This document shows, piece by piece, positions 8,144 to 31,932 of a DNA stretch of 64,000 nucleotides. Below the pieces are notes generated by a model, which was not told the origin of the DNA, ran no database searches, and saw nothing but the letters and a program-made list of their open reading frames with translations. The position numbers and the translations under genes were made by a program. Location of the stretch: positions 192,001 through 256,000 of the forward strand of contig CAVPLM010000003.1 in NCBI GenBank assembly GCA_963706025.1, written 5' to 3'. Each line of letters begins with the position of its first letter. Position 1 is the stretch's first letter. The stretch is from an uncultured Actinomycetes bacterium (GTDB taxonomy: Bacteria; Actinomycetota; Thermoleophilia; RBG-16-64-13).

Positions 8144-8294
8144 GCTTCAGGCCCTCGAGATGACACCGGGCCCGCCGCGAAGCGGGCCCGGTGTCATCTC
8201 AATCGGTGCTACAGAGCCAAAAACGCTACTGGGCTTTCACAAACATGACAGAATCGGTCATTGTGGTATTTCTACCCCTGGCTGGTCGTGTAAG
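8144..8294 (-). repeat. Copy of the 3' end plus terminator of the 14148-15176 gene, fused to the conserved 34-bp arm (att-like scar)
   Basis: 8151-8191 is identical to 14072-14112 (41 bp); minus strand encodes MTDSVMFVKAQ* versus VADAVKFVPAQ*; arm shared with 3551-3584. Confidence 0.85.
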
Positions 8295-13869: not shown

Positions 13870-14071
13870 CTGGCCTCCCGATCTTTGCCCCAGGTCCGCT
13901 CAGAAGGCCAAGATACCCGAATCTCGCCCGCCGGTCAGCATCGAGCGTTATGTTACGCTCAAGTATAGTCATATGGGCACCTTCGACGACCCCTCAGTAC
14001 CCCGCGCGTCTGCGTCTTCGCTTGCCCTTAGGCGCCCGTCGCAGTCCGGCACGGAGCGTCTGCGGCTTCAC

Positions 14072-14122
14072 GCCCTCGAGATGACACCGGGCCCGCCGCG
14101 AAGCGGGCCCGGCATCGACTCA
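14072..14122 (-). terminator. Hairpin terminator of the NlpC/P60-golvesin gene
   Basis: ccgggcccgc-cgcgaa-gcgggcccgg just after the stop codon. Confidence 0.7.
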
Positions 14123-14147
14123 ATTCGCGCTGCGAAGCCGAGAAACG

Positions 14148-15176
14148 CTACTGCGCAGGCACGAACTTCACGGCATCGGCCACCACGTAGCCGTTGGCTC
14201 CGGTGGCAAAGATGCTGATGCTTCCCGTTCCGGTGCTGTAGCCGGCGCCGAAGTTGTAGCGGCCCAGCGAGTACCAGGTCCCTCCGTTCAGTCGCTGGTT
14301 GATGTAGCGATCGTATTGGCCGGCGGGAGTGTTGACGTGTACCAACGCTACCGAAGCCCGGTTGGAGCCGCTTGTCCAGCGTAAGTAGATGGTGTACGAG
14401 CCGGACGAAGGGAATCGGGGCGTCCAGCGGGCCCAACTGGTGCTGGTGGTGGCAGCCTGCACCTGGTAGTCGTCACCGTAGTACCCGGAGACGCTGGTGC
14501 TGCGTGTCCAGTTGCCGCTCAGGTCCTCCCCACCGGTGCTCTTGGCGGTCGGATTGTCAAGAATGATCCCGGATGTCACCACGGAGTCCCGCCGGCGGGG
14601 TTCGTACTCGCTGCCCAGGTAGCGGCTCACCCTGCGCACGGTCAGGCCGCTGCCGGGAGCCTCGTAGATGATGGGCGAGTTCCAGGTGTCGCCACCGGCA
14701 TAGATGACCACGTGTCCGGAGACGCCGTTGTTCTTGACTAGTACGTCGCCCTCGCGCAGGAGCGAGCGGTCGCTCAGTGCGGACCAGGGTCCCAGGCAGT
14801 TGAAGAAATCGTAGCTGGTGTAGCGGGGGTAGATAGAAGTGTTCTCTCCATCCTCCTCCTGGTAGAGGAGTGTCCGAGGCACTTCCCAACACTTAAGGGT
14901 ATATCCGGAACAGTCGGGTCCGGGGCCGCCGCCCAGGTTGGGAGTCCAGCTCTCCCGGCCCCAACTGTAAAGGGCGCCGATGCCCGACTCCGCCCGGGCG
15001 ATGATCTCAGCCCGAGTCACGCTGGGGATGCCGGCGCGCGCGTCCGATGGCGCAGGACCGAAAAGCAGGCCGACAGCGGCCAGCGCCAGCATGAGGCCGC
15101 CGGCCAGGGCCGCGTGGCGGGAGCCAGTGGAGGTTGGGATGCGGTAACCGGCGCGAGTGTTCGGTCGACGTGTCAT
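14148..15176 (-). CDS. Secreted NlpC/P60-like cell-wall hydrolase with C-terminal golvesin/xanthan-lyase-type carbohydrate-binding domain
   Basis: Signal peptide; YSWG..DCSG and GD..GHV catalytic motifs; C-terminal IILDN..GNW..GYYGDDY..INQRLNGGTWYSLG.Y.F..ADAVKFV. Confidence 0.8.
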   Translation of the reverse strand: MTRRPNTRAGYRIPTSTGSRHAALAGGLMLALAAVGLLFGPAPSDARAGIPSVTRAEIIARAESGIGALYSWGRESWTPNLGGGPGPDCSGYTLKCWEVPRTLLYQEEDGENTSIYPRYTSYDFFNCLGPWSALSDRSLLREGDVLVKNNGVSGHVVIYAGGDTWNSPIIYEAPGSGLTVRRVSRYLGSEYEPRRRDSVVTSGIILDNPTAKSTGGEDLSGNWTRSTSVSGYYGDDYQVQAATTSTSWARWTPRFPSSGSYTIYLRWTSGSNRASVALVHVNTPAGQYDRYINQRLNGGTWYSLGRYNFGAGYSTGTGSISIFATGANGYVVADAVKFVPAQ

Positions 15177-16582
15177 GGCTGCCTCGCTTCGGCTTCGGCG
15201 AAGGAATGAACCAGGATGCTGTAGCCGCCTTCGCTTCCCCAGGGCTGGAAGACGCGGCCGTCCGGGGCCACCACGTAGGGCTGACCCAGGTAGACGAACG
15301 GTGAATCGGTGAGCCAGAGAGTGTCGGGAGTCGCTCCGGTGGATCCGGCGCCGGCCCCGGCGCTCGCACCGTCGGCCGGCCCGACTCTGCTCCGCCCACC
15401 GCTTATGACCGGGCCCTCACCCTCGGTCGAGGCCAACCGGGTGAGCACGAGTGACGCCTTGCGGTTACCCGATACCTCGGGCTTGAGCAGACGCGCGCCG
15501 ACGATCACTCCGCCGTTTCCGTCGCCATCCACCGACACCAAGTGCTCGACTTTGCGACCACCGGCCAGGACAGGGCTCGAATCGCCTGTCTGTGCCGCCT
15601 TCAAGGTGGTGGTGTCGAGGTCGAAGAACTTGACCCGGGCATTCCGGCCCGGCTTGAAGGTGACCTGAGCCACACGGCCAAGGCTCCGGTCCATCGGCCG
15701 CCCGGCGACAATGCGGGCAGTCGCCCGGCCCGGTTCGGGCTGCCGGGCCGCCGAGGCGACACCGCCTTGGACGTAGACCCCAGCGTGGGCCAGCAAGAGT
15801 ACCGTCTCGTGCGAGACTTCCAGACACGGACCCTGGTCGGTCGCGAATAGACCGGTCACCACGTCGTTCAACTCCGGGAGAGGCACGGCGCCAAGGTGTG
15901 TCCCCCGCCAGTCGAAGGTGACAAGGCTCCGGTCGGAGTCGCAGTCGAGCACGTACAGCCGATCGTCGTCCACCGCCAAAAACCGTGGAGCTGCAAGCGG
16001 GATGGGCGCCGAGCCGGCCGGCTCTCCGGTCGGGCCTAGGAACAGCAGCCTGCCGTTGACCGAATCGAGCACCGCGATACGTCCGTCGGGCGCTACGGCC
16101 AGTGCCTCCGGACCTCGGGCCAGACCTTCACCTGGTTCCAGGAGGCCGACCTCACCGGGATTGCTTCCCCAGGGCAAGGTGACCAGCAGATCGCCGCTCG
16201 CTGGGAGGCCGGTCACAGAGTCGGTGGCCATGATTTCATCGGCCGCTGTGGTGAGCTGCGCGTCGACTGCTGAAGGTTCGGACGGCGACATGATCGCCGC
16301 CTCCTGGGCGGCGACATTCACCGAGGGCTGTCCTGCCCCCAGGACAAACCCGGGCGTCGCGAGCGCGTACGCCGCGAGCGCGCACAGGCCTGCGCCTGCT
16401 GCCCACGCTATCAGCGTTGCCGGGCGCGGGCTCCTGCACAGGCCTATCCACCGTTCCCGTCGCAGACGAGGCGATGGTGCTCCCGGCACGCGGTCGCCGG
16501 GAGTGGCGCCGCCACTGGGAGGGGCGCCGCCCCTCGGACGGGCGCCGCCACCAGGACGGCGCTTCAGGGTTATTCGGACCAT
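15173..16582 (-). CDS. Membrane-anchored hypothetical protein, probable beta-propeller (NHL-like)
   Basis: One TM segment; LPWGS..GP.ALAVAPDGRIAVLDSVNGR repeats; overlaps the start of the downstream gene; GGAGGAG RBS. Confidence 0.6.
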   Translation of the reverse strand: MVRITLKRRPGGGARPRGGAPPSGGATPGDRVPGAPSPRLRRERWIGLCRSPRPATLIAWAAGAGLCALAAYALATPGFVLGAGQPSVNVAAQEAAIMSPSEPSAVDAQLTTAADEIMATDSVTGLPASGDLLVTLPWGSNPGEVGLLEPGEGLARGPEALAVAPDGRIAVLDSVNGRLLFLGPTGEPAGSAPIPLAAPRFLAVDDDRLYVLDCDSDRSLVTFDWRGTHLGAVPLPELNDVVTGLFATDQGPCLEVSHETVLLLAHAGVYVQGGVASAARQPEPGRATARIVAGRPMDRSLGRVAQVTFKPGRNARVKFFDLDTTTLKAAQTGDSSPVLAGGRKVEHLVSVDGDGNGGVIVGARLLKPEVSGNRKASLVLTRLASTEGEGPVISGGRSRVGPADGASAGAGAGSTGATPDTLWLTDSPFVYLGQPYVVAPDGRVFQPWGSEGGYSILVHSFAEAEARQP

Positions 16583-21411: not shown

Positions 21412-21524
21412 CAGGATCTCCTTGGGGAGAGTTTGGCACCCGACAGCATAGCGTACGAAGTGGCAGGGTAGACCCCGTCGGAGGTGATCCGCGATGAAAG
21501 GCGGTCAGGGAGTATCAGTGGCGA

Positions 21525-21851
21525 TCAGAAGCTGGCGGGTTCAATACGCTCGGAACGGGCGCGCCTTATCAGGTCGAGATCCCCGCGGCTCGGACCTATC
21601 AGGTCCGGTTCCGGGAGTGTCTCCAATTCGGCAAGCGCCTCCAGCACGCAGGCGAATCCCTCTTCGACGGCCAGGGAAACATAGATCACCTCGGGGCGAT
21701 CGAGGACGGCCATCTGCTCGAAGCCGCAATCCGGACACCAAAGACGGAGTCTCCAGCGGGACTCGTCTTCCCGTTCCCAGTCTGCGGCCTGGACAAGAGG
21801 TGAGGCACACGATCGGCAGAAGATCCGAGGAATGGGATTGCGGGACGTCAT
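21525..21851 (-). CDS. Hypothetical Zn-ribbon protein
   Basis: CRSC..LVQ..W....W.LRLWCPDC and C-terminal IEPASF; recalls a family seen in Thermoleophilia (from memory). Confidence 0.65.
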   Translation of the reverse strand: MTSRNPIPRIFCRSCASPLVQAADWEREDESRWRLRLWCPDCGFEQMAVLDRPEVIYVSLAVEEGFACVLEALAELETLPEPDLIGPSRGDLDLIRRARSERIEPASF

Positions 21852-22030
21852 GCTGTCAGGACCGTCACTCACGGTGCCTCTGTCTCTCTGCGCCGGCAGG
21901 CCGGCCGCGGTCAATTGCCAGTAGGTGGCCTGGACTGCGCCACAAGACAAGTATCGGCCGGGGGGGCGGCGGGGTTTAGCGAAGAGCAGCAGATGGGCCG
22001 TTCCCGCAGTCTCCCCGGCACGAGCAGGCC

Positions 22031-22816
22031 CTACTCAGCTTCCGTTCCAGACTCCCCCTCATGTGAGGACGACGGTCTCGCCTGCCAGAACGTGGCCAAG
22101 GACACCAGTCGAGCGACGATGGTGATGAGAAAGATCTGCCCGAAGATCGCCTGAAACAGCCCAAGCAGTTTTGCCGGGTACGTTACCGGGACAAAGTCAC
22201 CGAGGCCTACGGTGGTCATGTTGACGAAGCTGTAGTAGTAGAGGTCACCGACAGCCATGGAGTGCCCAGGGGAGGCGGACGGCGCGATGACCGCCTCCCC
22301 GTGAGCCACTGACAGCACCAGGTAGAGAATGGCGAAATCGATGCCGACCAGAAGATAGGCGGACAGTGCCGCCGCTATGGTCTCCCCTGTCACCCGCCGA
22401 GCTGAGGCAATGCGACGAATGATGAGCGGAAAGGCCGCGATGAGCAGCATTACGAAGACAAGACCAGCCAGCGAAGTGACAACTACGCCGAGTACCGAAT
22501 TGCCCAGCCAAACAAGAATCACCGAGCCTGCCACTCCGCCGACGAACGCGATCCAGCCCAGGATCACCCAGACCCGTGAAGCACGTGATGCACGAACGGC
22601 AAGCAAGAGAGACGCCGCTGCCAAGGCCTGGCCGACCCTCCATCCCCACTCATACTCCGCCGCTCCGACGGTGAACACGAGACTGACGAGCAGCAGAACG
22701 AAGAGTGCGTAGTACGAGTCGGCCCCAGACAGCCGGCGTCGGTGACTCACGGCCACCTCAGCCTCCGACTGCCGCTCGGACGTCTCTTCGATGTCGTGCC
22801 TCTTTCTCAGGAGCAA
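22031..22816 (-). CDS. Potassium channel family (Ion_trans_2) protein
   Basis: Multiple TM segments; YYSFVNMTTVGLGDFVP pore signature. Confidence 0.88.
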   Translation of the reverse strand: MLLRKRHDIEETSERQSEAEVAVSHRRRLSGADSYYALFVLLLVSLVFTVGAAEYEWGWRVGQALAAASLLLAVRASRASRVWVILGWIAFVGGVAGSVILVWLGNSVLGVVVTSLAGLVFVMLLIAAFPLIIRRIASARRVTGETIAAALSAYLLVGIDFAILYLVLSVAHGEAVIAPSASPGHSMAVGDLYYYSFVNMTTVGLGDFVPVTYPAKLLGLFQAIFGQIFLITIVARLVSLATFWQARPSSSHEGESGTEAE

Positions 22817-23179
22817 TACCTCCTCCTAGCACCCACGCACGAATTATCATGGAAGCGAGCGCTTGGTCCCGTATCCCGTTTTCGACGTCGGAGCTTCGTT
22901 TCCCCCCGCCGCGCGAGTGGGTGCGACCATGGTCGGGATGGTGTCGAGAGAATTGGCGCATGTGCCATTCGTTCGGCTAAGATGGGCTCGTCATACCCGG
23001 CCGGCCAACTTGCAGACCGGGCTCGACAGGACACGAGTGAGGGCGCGCAAGAAGGCGCACCGCGGAGGGTTCATGGGGCTGAACCGGGCAAGACGAGCCG
23101 GCCTTCATATCGCGTCCATGCTCTGGGGCGGCCTGTTCAGTCCACAGGTGTGGTGATCGTGACCCAGAAGGAGCCCGTG

Positions 23180-25483
23180 GTGGGTGAGACGACACAGAAC
23201 GGACGAAAGCGTCGTCGCTTTCCCCTTGCCAGCATCGTCGTGGCAGTCATCTTGTTCCTACAGGTGGCCTTCTACTTCCTGGTCGGGATAGCCGATCTGT
23301 TCTCCGTGGGAGTGCTTGGCAGCAAGCCCGCAGCTGACTTCATCGTGGAGGGCGCGCTCAGCCCCGAGGGGAGCCTACTGGTTGCTGGCGGGTTTGCTCT
23401 GGTTTTTGGAGCCTTGGGCCTAGCTGTCATGGTCGGTCTCTTCTTTGGGCGGAGATGGGCTTGGGCGTCCGCCATGACCTGGGCCACTCTGTCCCTCGCG
23501 CTTGGTCTCGTATACTACTTCCGAGGGGACCCCAGATACTGGAGCATGCTTGGGGCCGTGGTATTCGTACTGGCTCTCAACCAGGCTTCCGTACAGCGGG
23601 CATTCACCAAACAGAGCGCGCGGGTGACTCCCGCGACGGGCTCCCAGCAGAGTGACATGGTCTCGGCGCCGACGGAAGCTTCGAACCTGGAGCTGCTGCG
23701 CACCTTCGAACCCGTGCTGCGCTTCACTAAGGGAGAGCGCTTCTTTCCAACCGACGTTGAGAGATACGTGTCTCGATCGAGCCTCTGGGTGCGTCATCCC
23801 GACGGCAAGGAGGAGGTGCTGGCGAGGAGAGGTGAGCTCGACATGGAAGGGCTTGCCCGGCACCGAGAGCATGTCTTCGGTACCGTGGAGTATCTTCGCT
23901 TCAACGATACCCTGAGCGTGGCTGAAGGCGCCCGGGCGCTCTCCGAGGTGCGCCGACTACGCAAACAGGATGACGCAGTCTTTCGTCCGGGAGTGGGCCG
24001 GCTTGCCCGGGTTGGGTTTGCCCCTCGAGTAGTCGATGCCTTGTTCTCTCTTTCGCTACTTCTGAGGGGAAAGGTACATCCGGTGACGGCAGCTGCCGCC
24101 GAACTCGAATACCACCGAATGTTGCTCCAAGACCAGAGGCACCCATACTACGGCCGGGTTGCCCGCCGAGGAGGCTGGACCATACTCCAGTACTGGTTCT
24201 TCTACTGCTACAACAGCTGGCGGTCAGGGTACGAGGGGGCGAACGATCACGAGTCCGACTGGGAGAACATCCTCATCTACCTGTATGAAGAAGACGGCCG
24301 TCTTCATCCTGAGTGGGTCGGTTATGCATCGCACGATTTCCATGGCGACGATCTGCGCCGGCGCTGGGACGACCGCGGGCAGCTCGAATTGGTGGAAGGA
24401 CACCCGGTGGTATGGGCGGGAGCCGGATCTCACGCCTCGTATTTTCAGCAAGGCGAGTACCAGGCAAAGGTAGCGCTTCCCGTGCCCAACTGGATACGGG
24501 CGGTGTCCAGAGGACTGACCTTCTTTTGGACTCGCATTCTTGGGCAGGCCGGCAGAACGTCGGACCCGCTGCGCATCCCCTTTGTGGACTACGCACGAGG
24601 CGACGGAACGAGCATCGGTCCAGGCCAAGAGCACGGATGGGAGCCGGTCGTCATCGACGAGTCCACTCCCTGGGTCAGTCGCTATCGCGGCCTGTGGGGC
24701 CTCTTCGCGAACGACCCCACCTCGGGCGAGAACGCTCCTGCCGGGCCGATGTACGAGCGTAGCGGTGAGCCTCGGCGCTCTTGGTACGACCCCCTGGGGT
24801 TTGTCGGGCTGGATAAGGAGCCGACCCCGCCGGCTGCCAAAGACTTGCTTGCGCAAGAAAGCGCCCGGATCGAGCAACGTCAGCTTGACGTGGACCGGCT
24901 TATCGGACAGAGGCTCTCTGAGTTGCACGTCATCAGCGCCGAGATGCTGGCGATGGAAGGCAACCCGAATCTCCGCACCCGCTACCTCAAGTCGGCCGAT
25001 GAAACAGTCTCCGTGAGAGACGATCTCCGTCGTCTGCAGCAGGAGCTCACCGAGAATGAAGCGGTGCTCGGGGCTGTCAGGGAGAAGATGGCCACACTGG
25101 AAGAAGGCCGGAGATCCGACCCTCGGGCTCACATCAAACAGCTTGCGCAGCCTGTGCCTCAGGCTGACTTACGGCTCAATCGAGCGGCTGAGGCGTGGGG
25201 TGCGGTAAGCCTGAGCCTTATCCTGCTCGGCATCGTGGCTTTGCTGGTTCTTGCTCGCGATCATCTCTGGATCGGGCTCGTAGTCATGATCGGGGCCGTG
25301 CTGCTTCTGGAGGCGATCCTTCGGGGCCACTATGTTCGTACGCTCGGAGGCATCGCTGCGATACTTGCCGTGATCTCAGCCATACTCCTCATCGTCCACT
25401 TGTGGCTGTGGGTCATCGCGATAATCCTGGCCGCACTAGCATTGTTTCTGATGGTGCAGAAACTCCGGGAGCTGTGGAGCTAG
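23180..25483 (+). CDS. Large membrane protein with central Vps62/NPP1-like soluble domain and coiled coil
   Basis: N- and C-terminal TM bundles; FEPVLRF..GERFFP, LQYWFFY..N, HESDWE, GSHASY; start placed after AAGGAG. Confidence 0.7.
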   Translation: MGETTQNGRKRRRFPLASIVVAVILFLQVAFYFLVGIADLFSVGVLGSKPAADFIVEGALSPEGSLLVAGGFALVFGALGLAVMVGLFFGRRWAWASAMTWATLSLALGLVYYFRGDPRYWSMLGAVVFVLALNQASVQRAFTKQSARVTPATGSQQSDMVSAPTEASNLELLRTFEPVLRFTKGERFFPTDVERYVSRSSLWVRHPDGKEEVLARRGELDMEGLARHREHVFGTVEYLRFNDTLSVAEGARALSEVRRLRKQDDAVFRPGVGRLARVGFAPRVVDALFSLSLLLRGKVHPVTAAAAELEYHRMLLQDQRHPYYGRVARRGGWTILQYWFFYCYNSWRSGYEGANDHESDWENILIYLYEEDGRLHPEWVGYASHDFHGDDLRRRWDDRGQLELVEGHPVVWAGAGSHASYFQQGEYQAKVALPVPNWIRAVSRGLTFFWTRILGQAGRTSDPLRIPFVDYARGDGTSIGPGQEHGWEPVVIDESTPWVSRYRGLWGLFANDPTSGENAPAGPMYERSGEPRRSWYDPLGFVGLDKEPTPPAAKDLLAQESARIEQRQLDVDRLIGQRLSELHVISAEMLAMEGNPNLRTRYLKSADETVSVRDDLRRLQQELTENEAVLGAVREKMATLEEGRRSDPRAHIKQLAQPVPQADLRLNRAAEAWGAVSLSLILLGIVALLVLARDHLWIGLVVMIGAVLLLEAILRGHYVRTLGGIAAILAVISAILLIVHLWLWVIAIILAALALFLMVQKLRELWS

Positions 25484-25611
25484 TCCGACCTTCCCCGAAG
25501 TCGGCCGGGAGGCCACGGATACCCGGGGACGTATGAGGTTTGGAAAAAACTGGTTCCGGAAATTTATACCGCCAGGCGTATCCGCCAACCACGAAATGAG
25601 GAGGGAACACA

Positions 25612-26014
25612 ATGAAAAGGCCGATAGGAGTATGGATCATAGGCATCCTCGCGCTTATTGTCGCGATCCTTCGCATCTTGGGCGCGGTTCACGGCCCTGG
25701 GTGTCGGCGGGCTGGCGATGACCGGCACACTGGGCGAGGAGGCGGGGAGTCTCGGGGCAGAGGCCCTGGGGGTCGGGATAGCGTCGCTGATTAGTAGGGT
25801 CATCCTTGTCCTGATCTTTGCCCTGGCCTTCCTGGGACTGCAGCCCTGGGCCTGGGCGGCCCTGATGATCATTCAGTTGCTCACCATAGTGGTGGTAGTC
25901 GTGCAGTTCATCTTCGACGGCTTTCACTGGTCTTCGCTTACTACCATCATCATCCCGGTGATCATAGTCTTCTACCTCACCAGACCGAGAATCAGGCAGG
26001 CGTTCGGAGACTAG
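25612..26014 (+). CDS. Small 4-TM membrane protein (frameshift near 25680)
   Basis: MKRPIGVWII... continues in another frame to ..WAW..FYLTRPRIRQAF. Confidence 0.65.
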
Positions 26015-26084
26015 CCGGTACAGCCGGGACCCGCGGATGCAGGATCTGACCCAAAGACCAGACTCAGAACCAGGAGGCCAAGTA

Positions 26085-26411
26085 GTGATAGTAACCACCA
26101 CATCGAGCATCGAGGGAATGAGGATCACGGAATACAAGGGAGTCGTCAGCGGTAACGCTATTCACGGCATCAATATCGGGAAAGACTTCAAGGCTATCGG
26201 ACGGAACATTGTCGGGGGACGCTCGCAGGCGTACGAGGACGAGCTCGGCAAAGCTCAGTCCGAAGCGATGGCTGAGATGGAAAGCGCCGCCGCCGATCTG
26301 GGAGCGAGCGCGGTCGTTGCCGTGAGGCTGGACGTCGAAGGCCTCGGAGCCCAGAACAACATGCTCCTGGTCAGCGTTACCGGGACTGCGGTGGTCGCGC
26401 AGCCTCTCTAG
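26085..26411 (+). CDS. YbjQ/UPF0145 family protein
   Basis: VIVTTTSSIEG..Y.GVVSG..RNIVGGRSQAYE..MLLVSVTGTAV. Confidence 0.92.
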   Translation: MIVTTTSSIEGMRITEYKGVVSGNAIHGINIGKDFKAIGRNIVGGRSQAYEDELGKAQSEAMAEMESAAADLGASAVVAVRLDVEGLGAQNNMLLVSVTGTAVVAQPL

Positions 26412-26470
26412 GACCCGTGCCCGGGATATCGGCTCGCCCGGACACTAGACCGGCCGGGCAGAGAACGAGC

Positions 26471-26496
26471 GAGGGCCGTCCTTCGGGGCGGCCCTC
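26471..26496. terminator. Hairpin between convergent ybjQ-like gene and aqpZ
   Basis: gagggccgtcc-ttcg-gggcggccctc. Confidence 0.6.
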
Positions 26497-26500
26497 TCAA

Positions 26501-26538
26501 TGCCGCGCAAGCGGTACCGGGGGCTCGGACCCCCCCTC
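26501..26538 (+). pseudogene. Second, more degenerate tRNA-Ser 3' remnant
   Basis: tgccgcgcaagcggtaccggggg is identical to the 8308 copy; T-loop is mutated (ctcggac). Confidence 0.75.
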
Positions 26539-26572
26539 AAAGCGGCTCGATCCCGAATCGCCAGACGGGGCT

Positions 26573-27283
26573 TCAGGCAGGCTCCGGTTCGGCCTTGGGC
26601 TTCCCGATCAGATAGTGGTAGAGCAATCCTCCGACGGCGCCACCGATGATGGGCGCCACGATGAACAACCAGAGCTGGGAGAGAGCCCAGCTGCCCTGGA
26701 ATATGGCCGGCCCGATGCTTCGGGCCGGGTTGACCGAGGTACCGGTCACCGGAATACAAATCAAGTGGATGAGGGCCAGGGTCAGACCGATGGCGAGCGG
26801 GGCGAAACCCTTGGGTGCGCGCTCGTCGGTGGTCCCCATGATGACGAAGATGAAGATCAGGGTGAGCACGAACTCGGCCACAAAGCCCGCGGCCAGGCTG
26901 TATCCCCCGGGGGAATGCTCGCCATAGCCGTTGGAGGCGAAGCGGTCGGCAGCGGAGAAACCATCCACTCCGCTGGCGATGACGAAGAGCACCGCGGCGG
27001 CCACGATGGCCCCGATCACCTGAGCAACCATATACGGGCCGACATCTCTACCCGGGAAGCGCCTTCCTAGCCACAGCCCGAACGTCACCGCCGGGTTGAA
27101 ATGGCCTCCCGAGATGTGACCCACGGCATAGGCCATGGTGACCACGGAGAGGCCGAACGCCAGTGCTATCCCCAGAAAGCCGATACCAAAGTCCGGGAAG
27201 GTTCCGGCCAGAACGGCGCTCCCACAACCTCCCAGAACGATCCAGAACGTGCCGAAGAACTCGGCTATCAAGCGCCTTCCCAT
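26573..27283 (-). CDS. aqpZ: Aquaporin Z
   Basis: [43 protein letters not shown]. Confidence 0.96.
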
Positions 27284-27600
27284 ACCCACCTCCGCTCCAA
27301 GGATTACCCGCTGGCGGCGACGGACTTGGACCGGGTCTAGCCCGCGGTCCCGACTCCGCCTCCCAACCAGTCACAGTGTAGTGGATGCGCCTCGCATTAT
27401 GGAATCCTTTGCTTGCGCGACTCTGGCCCACACTGTAGAGTCCGCCGTGTGAACGGTAGGGGTGTTCCGGAAACGACCGTCAGAGAGAATCCCATGTCCA
27501 CTTCCGAGATGGCTGCCGGCGAGCTGCCCGGCTGCGACTCACGTATCGGCCTGGCGCCAAATCCGAGGCTGGAGACCGCTGCCGAGCCCGGGGGCTCGTC

Positions 27601-28701
27601 GTGAGAACCATCTCCACGGAGATCGCGTCACCGGCACCTGCCAAGCGCTTGATCGTCGTGCGTAGCATCCACGCCGGCCGCGACCTCGAGATGTTCCTGG
27701 TCACGGCGATCGCGACGATCCTCATCGTTCGCGCCGCCCTGGCGGCCACCGGCTGGCCACAGCTCGGCGGCGGCAAGATCCACGTCGCCCACCTCCTGTG
27801 GGGCGGGCTCGGTATGCTCGTCGCGCTCATCTTGTTCATGGTCTTGCAGGGGCGGCTTTGGAAACAGGTGGCGACGCTGCTCGCCGGCATCGGCTTCGGG
27901 CTGTTCATCGACGAGCTCGGCAAGTTCATCACGTCCGACAACGACTACTTCTTTCAGCCGGCCGTCGCCATCATCTACCTGCTGTTCGTGATGCTGTTCC
28001 TCGTCGGGACGGCGATTGTCCGCTGGGTCCGCATCTCGCCACACGCGGCGCTTGTGAACGCGTTCAGCCTGGCCCAGGAGGCCGTCATCCGCGACCTGGG
28101 CGAGGCGGAGCGCACCCAGGCCCTTACGTTGCTGGCGCAATGCGACCAGACCGAGCCCCTAGTGCAGGACTTGACACAGATGTTCAGCGCCATGCGCTCG
28201 CCGGCGAAGACGCCACCGCGCTTCTATATGCGCCTCAAGACGCGGCTCCGGACCTTCTACCAGTCACTGCTCGGGAAGCGCTGGCTCAAGGCACTCGTTG
28301 TGGGCTGGTTCGTGCTCGTCGCTCTCGGCAACCTGCTCCTTGCCATTCTCGTCGTCGTTGTCGCCGCGGCGGGGGAGTCGGGCTCACTGACTCTAGACTT
28401 CTGGAGGTACGGACAGCTGGTCTCTTCCGCCATCGGCGGCGTCCTAGTGGTTGTCGGCCTGATCCGCTGGCGCAGCTCGCGTCTGGCTGCGTACCGCTGG
28501 TTCGAGCGCGCGCTGCTGTTTACCATCTTCGTCACCCAGTTCTTCACTTTCTATAACAACCAATTCACGGCCGTCTTTGGGTTGGTCATCGCGCTCCTCA
28601 CCTATGTGACGATCAGGCTCATGATCCGCGAGGAGGAAGCTCGCGAGGAGTCGCGGTCGCCACACGAATCTGAGGGGTCTGCCCCAAGCCGGCTAGACTG
28701 A
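27601..28701 (+). CDS. Conserved hypothetical multi-TM protein
   Basis: HVAHLLWGG, GIGFGLFIDELGKF, DYFFQP; about 9 TM segments. Confidence 0.8.
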   Translation: MRTISTEIASPAPAKRLIVVRSIHAGRDLEMFLVTAIATILIVRAALAATGWPQLGGGKIHVAHLLWGGLGMLVALILFMVLQGRLWKQVATLLAGIGFGLFIDELGKFITSDNDYFFQPAVAIIYLLFVMLFLVGTAIVRWVRISPHAALVNAFSLAQEAVIRDLGEAERTQALTLLAQCDQTEPLVQDLTQMFSAMRSPAKTPPRFYMRLKTRLRTFYQSLLGKRWLKALVVGWFVLVALGNLLLAILVVVVAAAGESGSLTLDFWRYGQLVSSAIGGVLVVVGLIRWRSSRLAAYRWFERALLFTIFVTQFFTFYNNQFTAVFGLVIALLTYVTIRLMIREEEAREESRSPHESEGSAPSRLD

Positions 28702-28949
28702 GGCTATCGCGCGGGCTGGCGGCCGGCCTGCTACGGCGGATAGTCATCGACAGCGCTGGACCCCCCAGGCGAAGCCGATATCGGGGTTGTCGGCCGCGAC
28801 GAGGAAGGGATCAGAAACGCGGCGCTCAGCGGCAGACGGGGCGGCAACCTCCCCGGCCGGCCGAGTCCAGCTATCTCCGCGGCGCCATCTTTCCACCTCA
28901 TTGTCCTGCAATCGCCAATCAAACGGTTGCTCGATTCGGCGAGAGCGAG

Positions 28950-29108
28950 GTTCCACCTTTGGTTGTATTCGCTTCCGAGCCCCACTCCGTTACCCTGCAG
29001 TACCCGGTCGGCGGGGGAACGGAGGGTGAACGGGGGGTCCAAGGTGAGCACTTTCATCCTGGCAGTGGACCGCCCGGCTGAAGAGGCGGACTTCGCACTT
29101 CTGCGACA
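28950..29108 (+). pseudogene. ssb 5' remnant 1 (promoter plus codons ~18-41) ending in arm gcacttctgcgaca
   Basis: gttccacctttggttgtattc...taccctgc matches 31329-31377; encodes VNGGSKVSTFILAVDRPAEEADF. Confidence 0.85.
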
Positions 29109-29262
29109 TCCGCCTCAGCTCGCACCTCTTTATCAGACCTGCTGAGATCCTCGATCTCCTCTCAGGTAACGAACTCTCCGCGCGGCACCGACCGACTGCT
29201 CCGTATCCGCTGTCTGGCGAGGCGGTCGTGGCGGGTGCTCGTGAGTGCGGGCCCGGTCGCTC

Positions 29263-30567
29263 CTAAAGGTCCTGCCGCGCACGTGGCGGGACCAGCTTCG
29301 TGCGTGAAGGCTCGCGCACGAGAAGGAGGATCAGGATCGCGCTGAGCACCAGCAGAAGAGCGGCGGTGACGAAAGCCCTGCTGGCGCCAAAGCGGTCGTA
29401 GATCCACCCTCCCAAAAGCGGACCGATCACTCCGCCCAATGCAGCCGCTGCGGTGTAGTATCCCAGCGCTGAACCCTGGTGGGCACGGTCTGCAAGGTCG
29501 GTCACCAGTGCCTCCTCGGCGGGTATCGCGGCGGCGAAGGCCGCAGCCTCGAGCACCCACAGAACGGCCAGCGGCCAGAGCGACCGCACGAATACGACCG
29601 CAACGGTAGCCAGCGCGGCCACCACCAGCGCGGCCACGATCGGTGGGCGCCGTCCGACGCGGTCGCTGATGCCGCCCAGTCGCGAGGGGAGCACCGACCC
29701 GGCGACGGCTGCCGGCAGGAAGGCGAGGGCAAGGGCGAGCATGCTGGTCGAGACGTTGTCGAACAGGTACGGCATCAGGATCGGGCCCAGGAGCGCGGTG
29801 GCGACCGCCGTCAACACCACGATACCCATCAGGAGCCTCAACTGGCCGGGGAGGCGCCACGCTCCACCCCCGGGGGCCCTTTGATCCTCGGCAGCTCCAG
29901 GTGTCTTCTCGACGCGGCTCCCGCCTTGAAAGAGAGTCTCGGGGATCTTCCGCCATACGATCGCGGCAGCGACCAAGGTAGCGACTGCGTACCCGAGGAA
30001 GAGCAGGCGCCAGCCGCCGACGAGCGTCAGCCATCTTCCGGTTTCGTCGCCTTCGAGCAAACCGAGAAGAGCGAAGCCCACGAGAGACCCTACGAGGGTG
30101 CCGCGAAAGGCCATTTCTTCGATGCGCCCGTATTCCCTTCCGCGACAGTCGACAGGCGCTAGGTCCGACACGATGGCCAGAGCCGCAAGCCACGTAAGAC
30201 CCGATCCCACGCCCTGCGCGACCTGGGCGAGATACAGACCGCCCACCCCTGATGCGAGGCCAAAGGCAACGTTCGATAGGGCATAGGCCAGCAGGCCGGC
30301 GATCAGGAAAGGCCGCCGGCCGAGACGGTCGAGCCCGCGCCCGATGAGGGGCTGGGAGATGACCACGATCGCCGCGTAGGCGGAGAACAGCCCACCGATC
30401 GCGAGAGGGCCGGCTCCCATCCCGCGTGCGATGAGGGGCACGCCGAACAACAGCATGCCGAAAGGAAAGGACGTGAGGAACACGCTGAGCCGCAGACGCC
30501 GGAGGTGCCGGTCGTTAGCAGAGGTTCTCGCGTCGTCCGATGCGAGGGGTGCGCCCGAGTCAACCAC
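29263..30567 (-). CDS. MFS transporter
   Basis: 12 TM segments; G..LDRLGRRP and GGISDRVGRRP MFS motifs. Confidence 0.92.
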   Translation of the reverse strand: MVDSGAPLASDDARTSANDRHLRRLRLSVFLTSFPFGMLLFGVPLIARGMGAGPLAIGGLFSAYAAIVVISQPLIGRGLDRLGRRPFLIAGLLAYALSNVAFGLASGVGGLYLAQVAQGVGSGLTWLAALAIVSDLAPVDCRGREYGRIEEMAFRGTLVGSLVGFALLGLLEGDETGRWLTLVGGWRLLFLGYAVATLVAAAIVWRKIPETLFQGGSRVEKTPGAAEDQRAPGGGAWRLPGQLRLLMGIVVLTAVATALLGPILMPYLFDNVSTSMLALALAFLPAAVAGSVLPSRLGGISDRVGRRPPIVAALVVAALATVAVVFVRSLWPLAVLWVLEAAAFAAAIPAEEALVTDLADRAHQGSALGYYTAAAALGGVIGPLLGGWIYDRFGASRAFVTAALLLVLSAILILLLVREPSRTKLVPPRARQDL

Positions 30568-30680
30568 TGCAGGCTCCTATTCGTGTCGAATCTGTCCCGT
30601 ACTCTCTCACACTCGACTGGCCAGAGATAGCATGCAGGGAAGCGCAACCTGTGCCTCGGGAAATGGGGCTCCATTCGGGA

Positions 30681-30784
30681 TTCCACCTCGAGGTCGAGGG
30701 GGTGAACGGCGGCTCGAAGGTGTCGAGCTTCATCCTGGCGGCAGATCGCAACGCCGAAGAGGCGAACTCCGCACTTCTGCGACA
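30681..30784 (+). pseudogene. ssb 5' remnant 2 ending in the same arm gcacttctgcgaca
   Basis: Encodes EVEGVNGGSKVSSFILAADRNAEEANS; short promoter trace ttccacct. Confidence 0.85.
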
Positions 30785-30828
30785 CTGTGTCTGCTCCGGC
30801 ACGTGCCTGTCAGTCTGTGCTTGAAGCT

Positions 30829-30963
30829 TTGATCAGCGACGCAGTGAAGTCCGCATTGGCCGAAGATGCCGAGGATCTCCAAGCGTTCGAAGAGCGTGCT
30901 TCAGAGCCCGACCTTCTGTTCGAGACCGTGGTGAAGGCTCTGAAGGCGGATGGGAAGATTTAG
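30829..30963 (+). pseudogene. 5'-truncated CopG/RHH-type antitoxin
   Basis: ISDAVKSALAEDAEDLQAFEERASEPDLLFETVVKALKADGKI* overlaps the toxin start; no N-terminal DNA-binding domain. Confidence 0.7.
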
Positions 30964-31210
30964 GGTCTTCATCAAGCCCTCCGCCGTCCATGAGATCGAG
31001 GGGATCGCTGAAATGAAGCAGCGACAACGGATCGTCGCAAGTATCGGTGCCTTGAGTGACGATCGCCGCCCTCCGGGCAGCGAGAGGCTGACCGGCCGGG
31101 AGCAATACCGTGTGCGGCAAGGTGCCTATCGGATTGTCTACGCGATCGAGGACGACCGCCTCGCGGTGTACCTGGTCAAGGTGGGTCATTGAAGCAGCGT
31201 CTACCGGTAG
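30950..31210 (+). pseudogene. RelE/ParE-family toxin with premature stop
   Basis: YRVRQGAYRIVYAIED..VKVGH-TGA-SSVYR-TAG; family terminus is typically VGHRxxVYR. Confidence 0.8.
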
Positions 31211-31479
31211 GTTCCATCGGCGAGTCGGATTGCGCCCGACTAGCGGAGGATCAGAGCAACGACGTCGAAGTCGTCCGCCGGCACCTTGAGGTCTTGAGGC
31301 TGGAACCAGTAAGTCCACTCTTTCGGTAGTTCCATCTTTGGTTGTATTCACCCAGGGCGCGCCTCCCGCTACCCTGCTATCCCGGGCCGCCGCTGAAAGC
31401 TGAGGAAAGGCCGCGCGGCGGATAGGACACCATCCAATCCCGGAGGGACGAAACCAGTACTGAGAGGGAGGAAGGAACC

Positions 31480-31767
31480 ATGAACAGCGTGCACCTGATC
31501 GGCCGTCTGGCCACCGACGTGGACGTGAAGGAGGTGAACGGCGGGTCCAAGGTGAGCAGCTTCATTCTGGCGGTGGATAGGAATGCGGAGGAGGCGGACT
31601 TCTTCCGGATCAAGGCTTGGAACTCGCAGGCCGAAGCCGCGGGAGACCACTTGGGCAAGGGCCGGCGGATAGCCGTCGAAGGCTCCCTTCGTCAAGACGT
31701 CTACGAGAAAGACGGGGAGGAGCGGAAGGCCGTATCGGTGGTCGCCAAGAGGTTGGAGTATCTCTAG
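31480..31767 (+). CDS. ssb: Short single-stranded DNA-binding protein (OB fold only, no acidic tail)
   Basis: MNSVHLIGRL..FILAVDR..ADFFRIKAW..LGKGRRIAVEGSL. Confidence 0.9.
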   Translation: MNSVHLIGRLATDVDVKEVNGGSKVSSFILAVDRNAEEADFFRIKAWNSQAEAAGDHLGKGRRIAVEGSLRQDVYEKDGEERKAVSVVAKRLEYL

Positions 31768-31775
31768 GCGGAAAA

Positions 31776-31810
31776 GGGGCGCCGGCGGCGGATTCCGCCG
31801 CGGGCGCCCT
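31776..31810 (+). terminator. GC hairpin after ssb
   Basis: gggcgcc-ggcggcgga...ccgccg-cgggcgccc; no U tract. Confidence 0.45.
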
Positions 31811-31932
31811 GAACACAGTCCTCGCGGGGTGCATCGTTCCAGCGGAGAGAAAGGAATGAGCGACGCTGGTAATCTGGGGTCGGAGAAGACGCCGTCTACA
31901 CCGGTGCGACGTTCGAGCGCTGCAGCAGAAGC

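Follow-up and report, generated by a model that had tools for sequence, protein, structure and literature searches.

A probable fossil island of stacked cassettes at a serine recombinase attachment site inside a short ssb gene

Two partial copies of a short ssb gene, which encodes a 95-residue single-stranded DNA-binding protein (SSB), lie upstream of the intact gene in a 64-kb stretch of DNA from an uncultured actinobacterium. (This stretch is referred to below as the window, and the genome as G000.) We interpret the window as containing a fossil accretion island at an attachment (att) site inside ssb, used by integrative elements with a large serine recombinase (LSR), in which the front part of the gene was exchanged stepwise. 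We assign this reading a probability of about 0.6. As far as sequence comparison can tell, the ssb core at which both partial copies end is cut by LSR-bearing elements in related genomes, and the partial copies themselves are attL scars, made up of the 5' part of ssb, the core and an element-side arm. For the growth of the island, we infer stepwise accretion with exchange of the front part. An earlier note on this DNA, made from its letters alone, had proposed that ssb was a repeated integration target, and the comparison with relatives agrees with this: the breakpoint shared by the copies is a real recombination core.

The relatives compared here are uncultured Gaiellales metagenome-assembled genomes (MAGs), with a family set of 61 genomes. 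G000 is likewise a MAG, 92% complete with 7.3% contamination.

Results

The intact ssb gene and its partial copies

The intact gene (Table 1) encodes an SSB paralogue whose match to PF00436, the SSB domain with an oligonucleotide-binding (OB) fold, spans profile positions 1–103 of 104. Canonical bacterial SSB has an acidic C-terminal tail; the paralogue ends at residue 95, without such a tail. A canonical SSB is encoded elsewhere in the genome (G000:C3:803522–803827, in a 152-aa open frame).

Both partial copies described in the earlier note are real, with ssb-coding parts at 29023–29094 (copy 1) and 30687–30770 (copy 2). The core, GARGAGGCGGACTTC, corresponds to ssb codons 37–41, and both copies break off after codon 41, as had been noted. 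Both had also been said to end in EEADF; this is correct for copy 1, but copy 2 terminates in GCGAACTCC (EEANS), differing from GCGGACTTC. Directly 3' of codon 41, copy 1 continues into a 14-mer, GCACTTCTGCGACA (29095–29108), and the identical 14-mer follows copy 2 (30771–30784). The exact 14-mer occurs twice, and only twice, in the window, each time immediately 3' of an ssb fragment. When up to two mismatches were allowed, 0.53 matches would be expected, and at least two were found in 8 of 100 shuffles. Translation in the ssb frame past the core gives ALLRH..., which has no similarity to SSB, and tblastn searches revealed no intact ssb-like gene of which the 14-mer was a part. The junction of copy 2 was also present in G003 and G002:C62.

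Both copies retain parts of the region upstream of ssb. Copy 1 keeps the upstream block, as the earlier note had recognized: its first 21 nt match 31329–31349 in 20 of 21 positions and are followed by TACCCTGC. An internal deletion has removed its leader and codons 1–17, while the orthologue in G003, a genome of the window's genus, retains codons 3–19, i.e., has the complementary deletion. Of the block of copy 2, just the initial 8 nt, ATTCCACC (30680–30687), are left, but the copy did not lack this block originally: its G003 orthologue has the full block, the leader and codons 1–40, and copy 2 in the window therefore arose by microhomology deletion. The block (with up to five mismatches) precedes 49 of the 66 ssb copies with a start codon in the fetched loci, and is a putative promoter or operator.

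Over 85 nt including the arm, copy 2 is 79% and the intact gene 69% identical to copy 1. The ratio of nonsynonymous to synonymous substitution rates (dN/dS) was 0.15, 0.18 and 0.25 for the three pairs of copies, measured over codons 18–41 (24 codons only), at a synonymous divergence (dS) of ≈0.84. The low dN/dS indicates that most of the divergence of the three ssb copies arose in working genes, which fits the suggestion that the copies are once-functional alleles.

A large serine recombinase and its attachment site in relatives

A recombinase was sought beside the site in relatives, as the earlier note had suggested, and an LSR was found. In G006, ssb is split by an LSR element of ≈59 kb. At the left end of the element, ssb codons 1–41 are followed by an element arm; at the right end, an element arm is followed by the core and codons 36–95. 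Compared to the intact gene of G023, the two halves overlap by 19 nt, and the protein halves overlap at SEEADF. Encoded within the insert, 691 nt from attL, is a protein of 476 residues that combines Resolvase, Recombinase and Zn_ribbon_recom domains; the LSR proteins of G006 and G024 match PF00239, PF07508 and PF13408. LSR homologues were found in 8 of the 61 family genomes, none of them in the window's genus. In seven of the eight (the exception being G013), the gene lies 44–1722 nt from a core site, adjoining attL on the opposite strand in G006, G057 and G008, and an attR-type site on the same strand in G024, G076, G059 and G018.

The attP sites of G006, G024 and G076 were rebuilt by joining the left part of attR to the right part of attL. 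All three have their best dyad centred on one point, the boundary of core nt 4 and 5, where 14, 16 and 19 of 24 pairs match, respectively, giving an attP of ≈50 bp that forms an imperfect palindrome. The other 10 rows had dyad scores of 10–15 with scattered centres. The 14-mer of the window aligns with the outer right arm of the rebuilt attP, which contains the motif TTCTGC. Thus, both window fragments would be attL scars, and the shared 14-mer can be identified as the element-side arm of LSR elements in relatives.

No match to phage capsid (PF05065) or FtsK/SpoIIIE (PF01580) was found on the LSR-bearing contigs of G006, G076, G024, G057 and G018, and a search for the LSR in viral contigs gave 17 pattern matches, none of which was confirmed. 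Matches to PF00589, the tyrosine integrase domain, in G000, G003, G006, G019 and G011 were not at the arrays.

Two isolated attP-like sites, with a non-ssb left arm, the core and an element-type arm, are located in G000 away from any ssb (G000:C14:149745 and G000:C11:107464).

Extent of the island

The inserted DNA is larger than had been supposed. In the window, the distance from the flank gene to the ssb ATG is 9504 nt. In empty sites, the flank-gene homologue ends 208 (G001), 161 (G002:C9) and 191 nt (G015) before the ssb ATG, and ≈99 nt before it in G019. This difference (9504 nt versus 99–208 nt) identifies 21982–31328, ≈9.3 kb, as an island. (Empty sites are shown for four genomes only, since the flank protein shows little conservation and in most cases the sequence covered reached no more than 2.5 kb upstream of ssb; of the 46 ssb copies that were full-length or nearly so, only 5 had a tblastn match to this protein on their upstream side.)

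G003 has a 15.3-kb island at the same place. The parts shared between the two islands are 89–97% identical, compared to 77–83% for the flanks, which indicates horizontal spread. The G003 island contains five upstream blocks in series, with three arm-bearing junctions and, fused to the left-most block, an arm-like remnant; the window has two scars and the intact site. In G003, the degenerate block with its arm-like remnant precedes the homologue of the older cargo, and the corresponding left-most scar has been deleted in the window.

Co-inheritance of cassettes with the 5' part of ssb

The same TetR-ABC cassette sits beside an intact ssb in G044 (genus g7), G070 (g14) and G003 (g1). Between G044 and G070, the cassette is 89.0%, the block with leader 94.5%, and codons 1–41 are 90.2% identical, while identity is 76.5% in codons 42–95 (the g7 × g14 mean for these codons is 82.5%) and 49–60% in the downstream flank. 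Mismatches between the two genes amount to 12 of 123 positions in the 5' part and 38 of 162 in the 3' part (Fisher p = 0.003). The closer similarity of the cassette and 5' unit than of the rest of the locus argues that cassettes travel with the 5' part of ssb. Consistent with this, the flank-adjacent scar of G044 is nearest to the same-genus gene of G041 (84%), while the 5' unit of its intact gene pairs with G070 (92%).

The drop in identity does not coincide with the core. In co-transferred units it begins ≈45–55 nt before it, and the G044/G070 mismatches climb from nt 66 of the coding sequence (2 in 65 before, 10 in 58 after). Furthermore, the TetR-ABC cassette of G003 is shared with these two genomes, but the leader that immediately adjoins the block on its right side is different, which suggests homologous exchange within the 5' unit.

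Trees were compared for 37 intact genes. The tree of the 3' halves required 14 genus changes and united the members of the window's genus (support 84); that of the 5' halves required 18 and scattered them. When block and leader were included (49 copies), there were 25 genus changes against a shuffled mean of 28.8, i.e., almost no clustering by genus. Among 903 non-independent pairs, the 5' half was much more similar (p < 0.01) in 17, and the reverse was true in one.

Junctions in independent contigs

Logan contigs of four public runs from three studies, one of which may be the window's own source, were compared with 28800–31900. The junction between the major facilitator superfamily (MFS) transporter gene and copy 2 was bridged by X4 record 17 and X3 record 12, and that between the toxin–antitoxin cargo, the block and the start of ssb by X4 record 21 and X6 record 29. 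X4 record 20 bridged copy 2 and its arm to the toxin–antitoxin genes, with 155 extra nt that correspond to the undeleted part of the antitoxin. Junctions orthologous to those of the window also occur in G003 and G002, which are independent genomes. One X3 contig runs into an element-type arm after 31602, i.e., after codon 41 of the intact gene. Hence, a strain with a further insertion exists, and the site is still used in the population.

Occurrence in the family

With a cut-off of at least 74% identity, chosen to exclude canonical SSB, full-length short ssb was found in 43 of the 61 genomes and ssb 5' fragments in 18. In eight genomes (G000, G003, G044, G046, G058, G059, G070 and G075), the contig with such fragments also has an intact gene, 0.1–8 kb downstream of them, and in two (G006 and G076) there are only two ssb halves. 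The protein is highly conserved: mean column identity was 89% over 18 short SSB sequences, and the 95-aa protein of the window recurs with 100% identity in three other genomes, from two other genera, in which flanking DNA is 63–80% identical.

Two further junction types were observed. One breaks after codon 53, followed by a linker of ≈95 nt, the core and the arm (G003, G070 and G067, and in similar form G075, G058 and G059). The other breaks 13 nt past the core (codon 45/46), in small arrays of ≈1-kb cassettes (G019, G011, G002:C28 and G000:C18).

Several other loci were noted. Some genomes (G007 and G024) carry a second, 86%-identical short ssb copy in another context. The arrays at L029 (G019:C19, 5385–7565) and L031 (G011:C1, 153–5278) consist of 1–3.5-kb cassettes, and the sites between these have a left arm that is conserved (TTTGCAGCC...), then the core and an element arm; the cassettes of G019 are secreted or lipoprotein-like genes, and no recombinase was seen near either array. 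In G000, the upstream block and leader occur for a third time at C18:13589–13760, continuing for only ssb codons 1–7. A core with the third type of junction lies ≈8 kb away on the opposite strand (C18:21666), and between these sites are a C-terminal fragment of a tyrosine recombinase (15757–16278) and open reading frames (ORFs) that look AbiE-like by eye.

Cargo and decay of the island

The features of the window are listed in Table 1. The cargo between the copies had been read as an MFS transporter followed by a toxin–antitoxin pair. These identities stand, but the toxin–antitoxin pair is degraded rather than intact. The antitoxin is 5'-truncated, its homology to a full copy (G000:C3:762.7–763.3 kb) starting at 30828, and the ParE-family toxin gene reads TGA in place of a CGA codon of the full copy, with loss of the last 6 residues. 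Second copies of island cargo are found 530 kb from the window: G000:C3:752403–752917 (515 nt) corresponds to a 3' segment of the MFS gene, at 89% identity, and G000:C3:762700–763343 is a full toxin–antitoxin pair, 92% identical to that in the window. The sequences just 3' of attL 1 and between the toxin–antitoxin genes and the block had no match in any of the fetched loci.

Table 1. Coordinates of the island, its cargo and the ssb-derived features in the window.
Feature	Position	Strand	Remarks
Decayed genomic island of stacked cassettes	21982–31328		Between flank gene (21494–21979) and ssb upstream block
Ion-channel protein	22031–22816	-	Pfam; older cargo (block 22031–28701)
913-aa ORF	22742–25483	+	Older cargo
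YbjQ	26037–26411	+	Pfam; older cargo
Aquaporin	26573–27289	-	Pfam; older cargo
366-aa membrane protein	27601–28701	+	Older cargo
Upstream block of ssb copy 1	28950–28998	+	Putative promoter or operator
ssb remnant 1	29023–29094	+	Codons 18–41, ending EEADF
Predicted attL 1	29080–29108	+	Core GAAGAGGCGGACTTC and element-side arm GCACTTCTGCGACA
MFS transporter	29263–30567	-	Between the two scars; PF07690, E = 7.7e-47; 89% identical to G003
ssb remnant 2	30680–30770	+	8-nt start of block fused to codons ≈13–41
Predicted attL 2	30756–30784	+	Core variant GAAGAGGCGAACTCC; arm identical to attL 1
Degraded toxin–antitoxin cargo	30828–31192	+	Antitoxin to 30963; ParE-family toxin 30950–31192, PF05016, E = 8.4e-7
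Upstream block and leader of intact ssb	31329–31479	+	Block 31329–31377
Intact short ssb paralogue	31480–31767	+	95 aa; PF00436, E = 2e-22
Predicted attB core in intact ssb	31588–31602	+	Codons 37–41, EEADF; B' arm from 31603

Two repeats lie elsewhere in the window. A direct repeat of ≈118 nt (8144–8260 and 14065–14182, 80% identical), with a 44-nt G+C-rich hairpin, is the sole repeat found in 3–15.5 kb and may relate to an array at 3.5–14 kb that the earlier note had mentioned. The imperfect tandem repeat at 955–1201 is ACC/ACG-rich, mostly with 24-nt spacing, and represents low complexity of the Thr/Pro type inside overlapping long ORFs.

Discussion

In the mechanism that we propose, the first scars would have been made by an LSR acting on attP and attB. 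The island would then have grown stepwise, with each gene-adjacent unit ending in its own 5' unit (block, leader and codons 1–41); each event would have left the downstream gene whole with an exchanged front part, and the previous front part as a scar. The small recombinase-less cassettes (MFS; toxin–antitoxin) would most likely have entered through RecA-type homologous recombination, by loop-out and then loop-in through the 5' unit of ≈270 nt found at the flanks of every cassette. The array later decayed, through small deletions at microhomologies and a nonsense mutation. The exchanged leader in G003 and the early break in identity fit entry by homologous recombination.

A number of observations weigh against this reading. 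No recombinase was detected by Pfam in 22–38 kb of the window, and G000 contains neither a PF00239 match nor an LSR homologue at E ≤ 1e-30; its tyrosine recombinases are all outside the window. No circular or free form of a cassette was seen. A promoter scan of 28800–31900 revealed no sigma-70 consensus, and a search of Rfam with 28700–31900 gave no match at E ≤ 1. The dyad score of G006 (14/24) is within the background of 10–15 in unrelated rows, so that it is the shared centre and the two higher scores that carry weight. The earlier note had supposed that inserts bring a replacement block and 5' half. Indirect support comes from scars upstream of an intact gene in eight genomes and from the one cassette that different genera share together with its block, leader and first codons, but the large LSR elements of G006, G076 and G024 do not fit: they have non-ssb left arms and no ssb 5' half, and they split the gene. 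The comparison of 5' and 3' phylogenies, also proposed in that note, was similarly divided. The 3' halves group the window's genus, but in the approximately unbiased (AU) test on the 5' unit, monophyly (congruence) of this genus was not rejected (p = 0.52), and that of genus g7 was rejected only marginally (p = 0.035). Divergence over the 903 pairs was lower in the 5' halves (0.182) than in the 3' halves (0.217), and part of the contrast between the halves may reflect constraint. Finally, canonical LSRs join only attP to attB, or attL to attR with a directionality factor. A site with ssb on the left and element sequence on the right is an attL, not a canonical attP, and should therefore not integrate into attB. 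Since the canonical rule excludes a reaction of an attL-type site with attB, the route by which the small cassettes entered is one that we infer.

The main alternative for this entry step is an LSR of the type found in the staphylococcal cassette chromosome (SCC), acting in trans. A purely site-specific model, in line with the earlier note, would have circular elements whose attP combines the upstream block and 5' half of ssb with the core and, beyond it, the 14-mer arm, and a dedicated integrase that inserts each of them at the core, serving the small cassettes in trans. Such a model is supported by the breakpoint and arm, which are identical in the two scars of the window and recur in many relatives, and by the sharp left edge at the block common to every 5' unit; SCCmec LSRs, according to PMC11795197, break the usual directionality rule. 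However, the only recombinases beside the sites are LSRs of gene-splitting elements with non-ssb left arms, no tyrosine recombinase was found near any array checked, and no element with both an LSR and a terminal ssb 5' unit was found. The drop in identity before the core and the exchange of leaders behind the block also argue against it, and we consider the purely site-specific model possible, but on the unlikely side. A two-step route, by LSR insertion of an element with ssb codons 1–53 near its arm and subsequent short-repeat deletion, is possible, and would account for the codon-53 units. Alternatively, no mobile cassettes need be involved at all: the 5' region of ssb could have been tandemly duplicated or subject to unequal crossing-over, followed by decay and unrelated insertions. 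Direct repeats of 270 nt would favour unequal crossing-over, and the window copies are full of microhomology deletions, but the differences between the copies are mostly synonymous (at the dS and dN/dS given above), as in genes that diverged while working. The 14-mer that adjoins both copies is foreign and serves as the arm of LSR elements in relatives, parts of the island are nearer to G003 than the flanks are, and the same cassette is found at this locus in three genera; we regard duplication as improbable.

It is very improbable that the array was created during assembly of the MAG, by stitching variants of ssb from different strains in series. The level of contamination in G000 would be compatible with such an artefact, as would the fragmentation of the Logan contigs around repeats, but copies that are only 69–79% identical over 85 nt are too different for collapse or mis-joining. 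Local misassembly, which the earlier note had allowed for, is contradicted by the recurrence of the junctions in G003, in G002 and in contigs from other runs, by which three junctions are bridged. Least credible of all is a system like that of pilin genes, in which the partial copies would serve as silent donors for programmed changes to the SSB N-terminus. The copies are indeed stacked, promoter-proximal, in direct orientation and upstream of the expressed copy, but the protein is nearly invariant (100% across three genera; 89% mean column identity), so that no variation is produced, and the copies have decayed, with unrelated cargo lying between them. A programmed variation system was accordingly dropped on the invariance of the protein. 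An Xer/dif-type module was also considered and dropped, on the basis of the dif consensus alone.

Two extensions of the accretion reading can be put forward. The ≈270-nt 5' unit of ssb may be a portable docking module, with which recombinase-less cassettes circulate among Gaiellales genera. The TetR-ABC, toxin–antitoxin and MFS cassettes would dock by homology, or through an LSR in trans, always beside a promoter-bearing unit and always regenerating the target. We hold this to be doubtful; if true, it would amount to an integron-like platform built on the 5' end of a gene rather than on attI/attC. By analogy, the tail-less SSB might be a directionality cofactor of these LSRs, in which case the elements would target the gene for their own excision factor. 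The recombination directionality factor of phage TG1 is an SSB (PMC11795197).

Insertion into the 5' part of a gene with restoration of that part is a known kind of integration. The dusA-specific integrative elements insert into the 5' part, supply a new promoter and N-terminal coding part, and show tandem occupancy (bioRxiv 10.1101/2021.06.18.448947), and prfC is the insertion site of SXT (PMC4344509). To that extent, SXT/R391 at prfC and the dusA islands would resemble the present case, in inserting into the 5' part while keeping the gene expressed, with the reservation that the promoter here is putative. Unlike those elements, which use tyrosine integrases, an LSR is found at the site here, the replaced part encodes almost the same protein sequence as the resident one rather than a diverged N-terminus, the old 5' parts pile up as serial scars, and many cassettes are 0.8–4 kb in size and lack a recombinase.

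Tandem accretion at one att site is known from SCCmec composite islands and from the cis-mobilizable elements (CIMEs) and integrative and conjugative elements of streptococci. These are the nearest structural analogue: serial units at a single site are separated by att copies, and some lack a recombinase; SCC and the elements of the present relatives both use LSRs. SCC sits at the 3' end of rlmH and replaces no part of that gene, whereas the site here is in the middle of a gene, and each junction includes ≈270 nt of 5' sequence from the target gene. LSR elements that split a gene, which is restored only by excision, include skin in sigK, SPbeta in spsM and A118 in comK. The elements of G006, G076 and G024 resemble these, with an LSR element in a coding gene and a short duplicated core, but the gene in the window is whole despite the scars left behind. 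The arrangement of small cassettes, most of them with a single function, in an array anchored at a site beside a (putatively) promoter-bearing unit also recalls an integron. In this case, however, there is no intI, attI or attC, the cassette genes are in both orientations, and the inter-cassette repeat consists of a 5' gene segment and an LSR half-site. (An integron was considered as a candidate and rejected for the lack of intI and attC, the junctions consisting of ssb 5' unit, core and arm.) A literature search on serine recombinase integration in ssb found no description of this site, supplements not being covered, and one on Gaiellales genomic islands found nothing related, as judged by titles and the openings of abstracts.

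The comparison defines a natural attB/attP pair and a recombinase family in a barely studied, uncultured order of actinobacteria, and a single mid-gene site that has been hit repeatedly across at least 10 genera. The window offers a readable fossil record of successive insertions, in which the old gene fronts are stacked in order. One may ask why the preferred target should be a 95-aa SSB paralogue whose protein sequence is the same in different genera. If it is true that small cassettes move together with a docking unit derived from the 5' end of a gene, this would represent a mode of exchange distinct both from integrons and from 3' replacement of the tRNA type.

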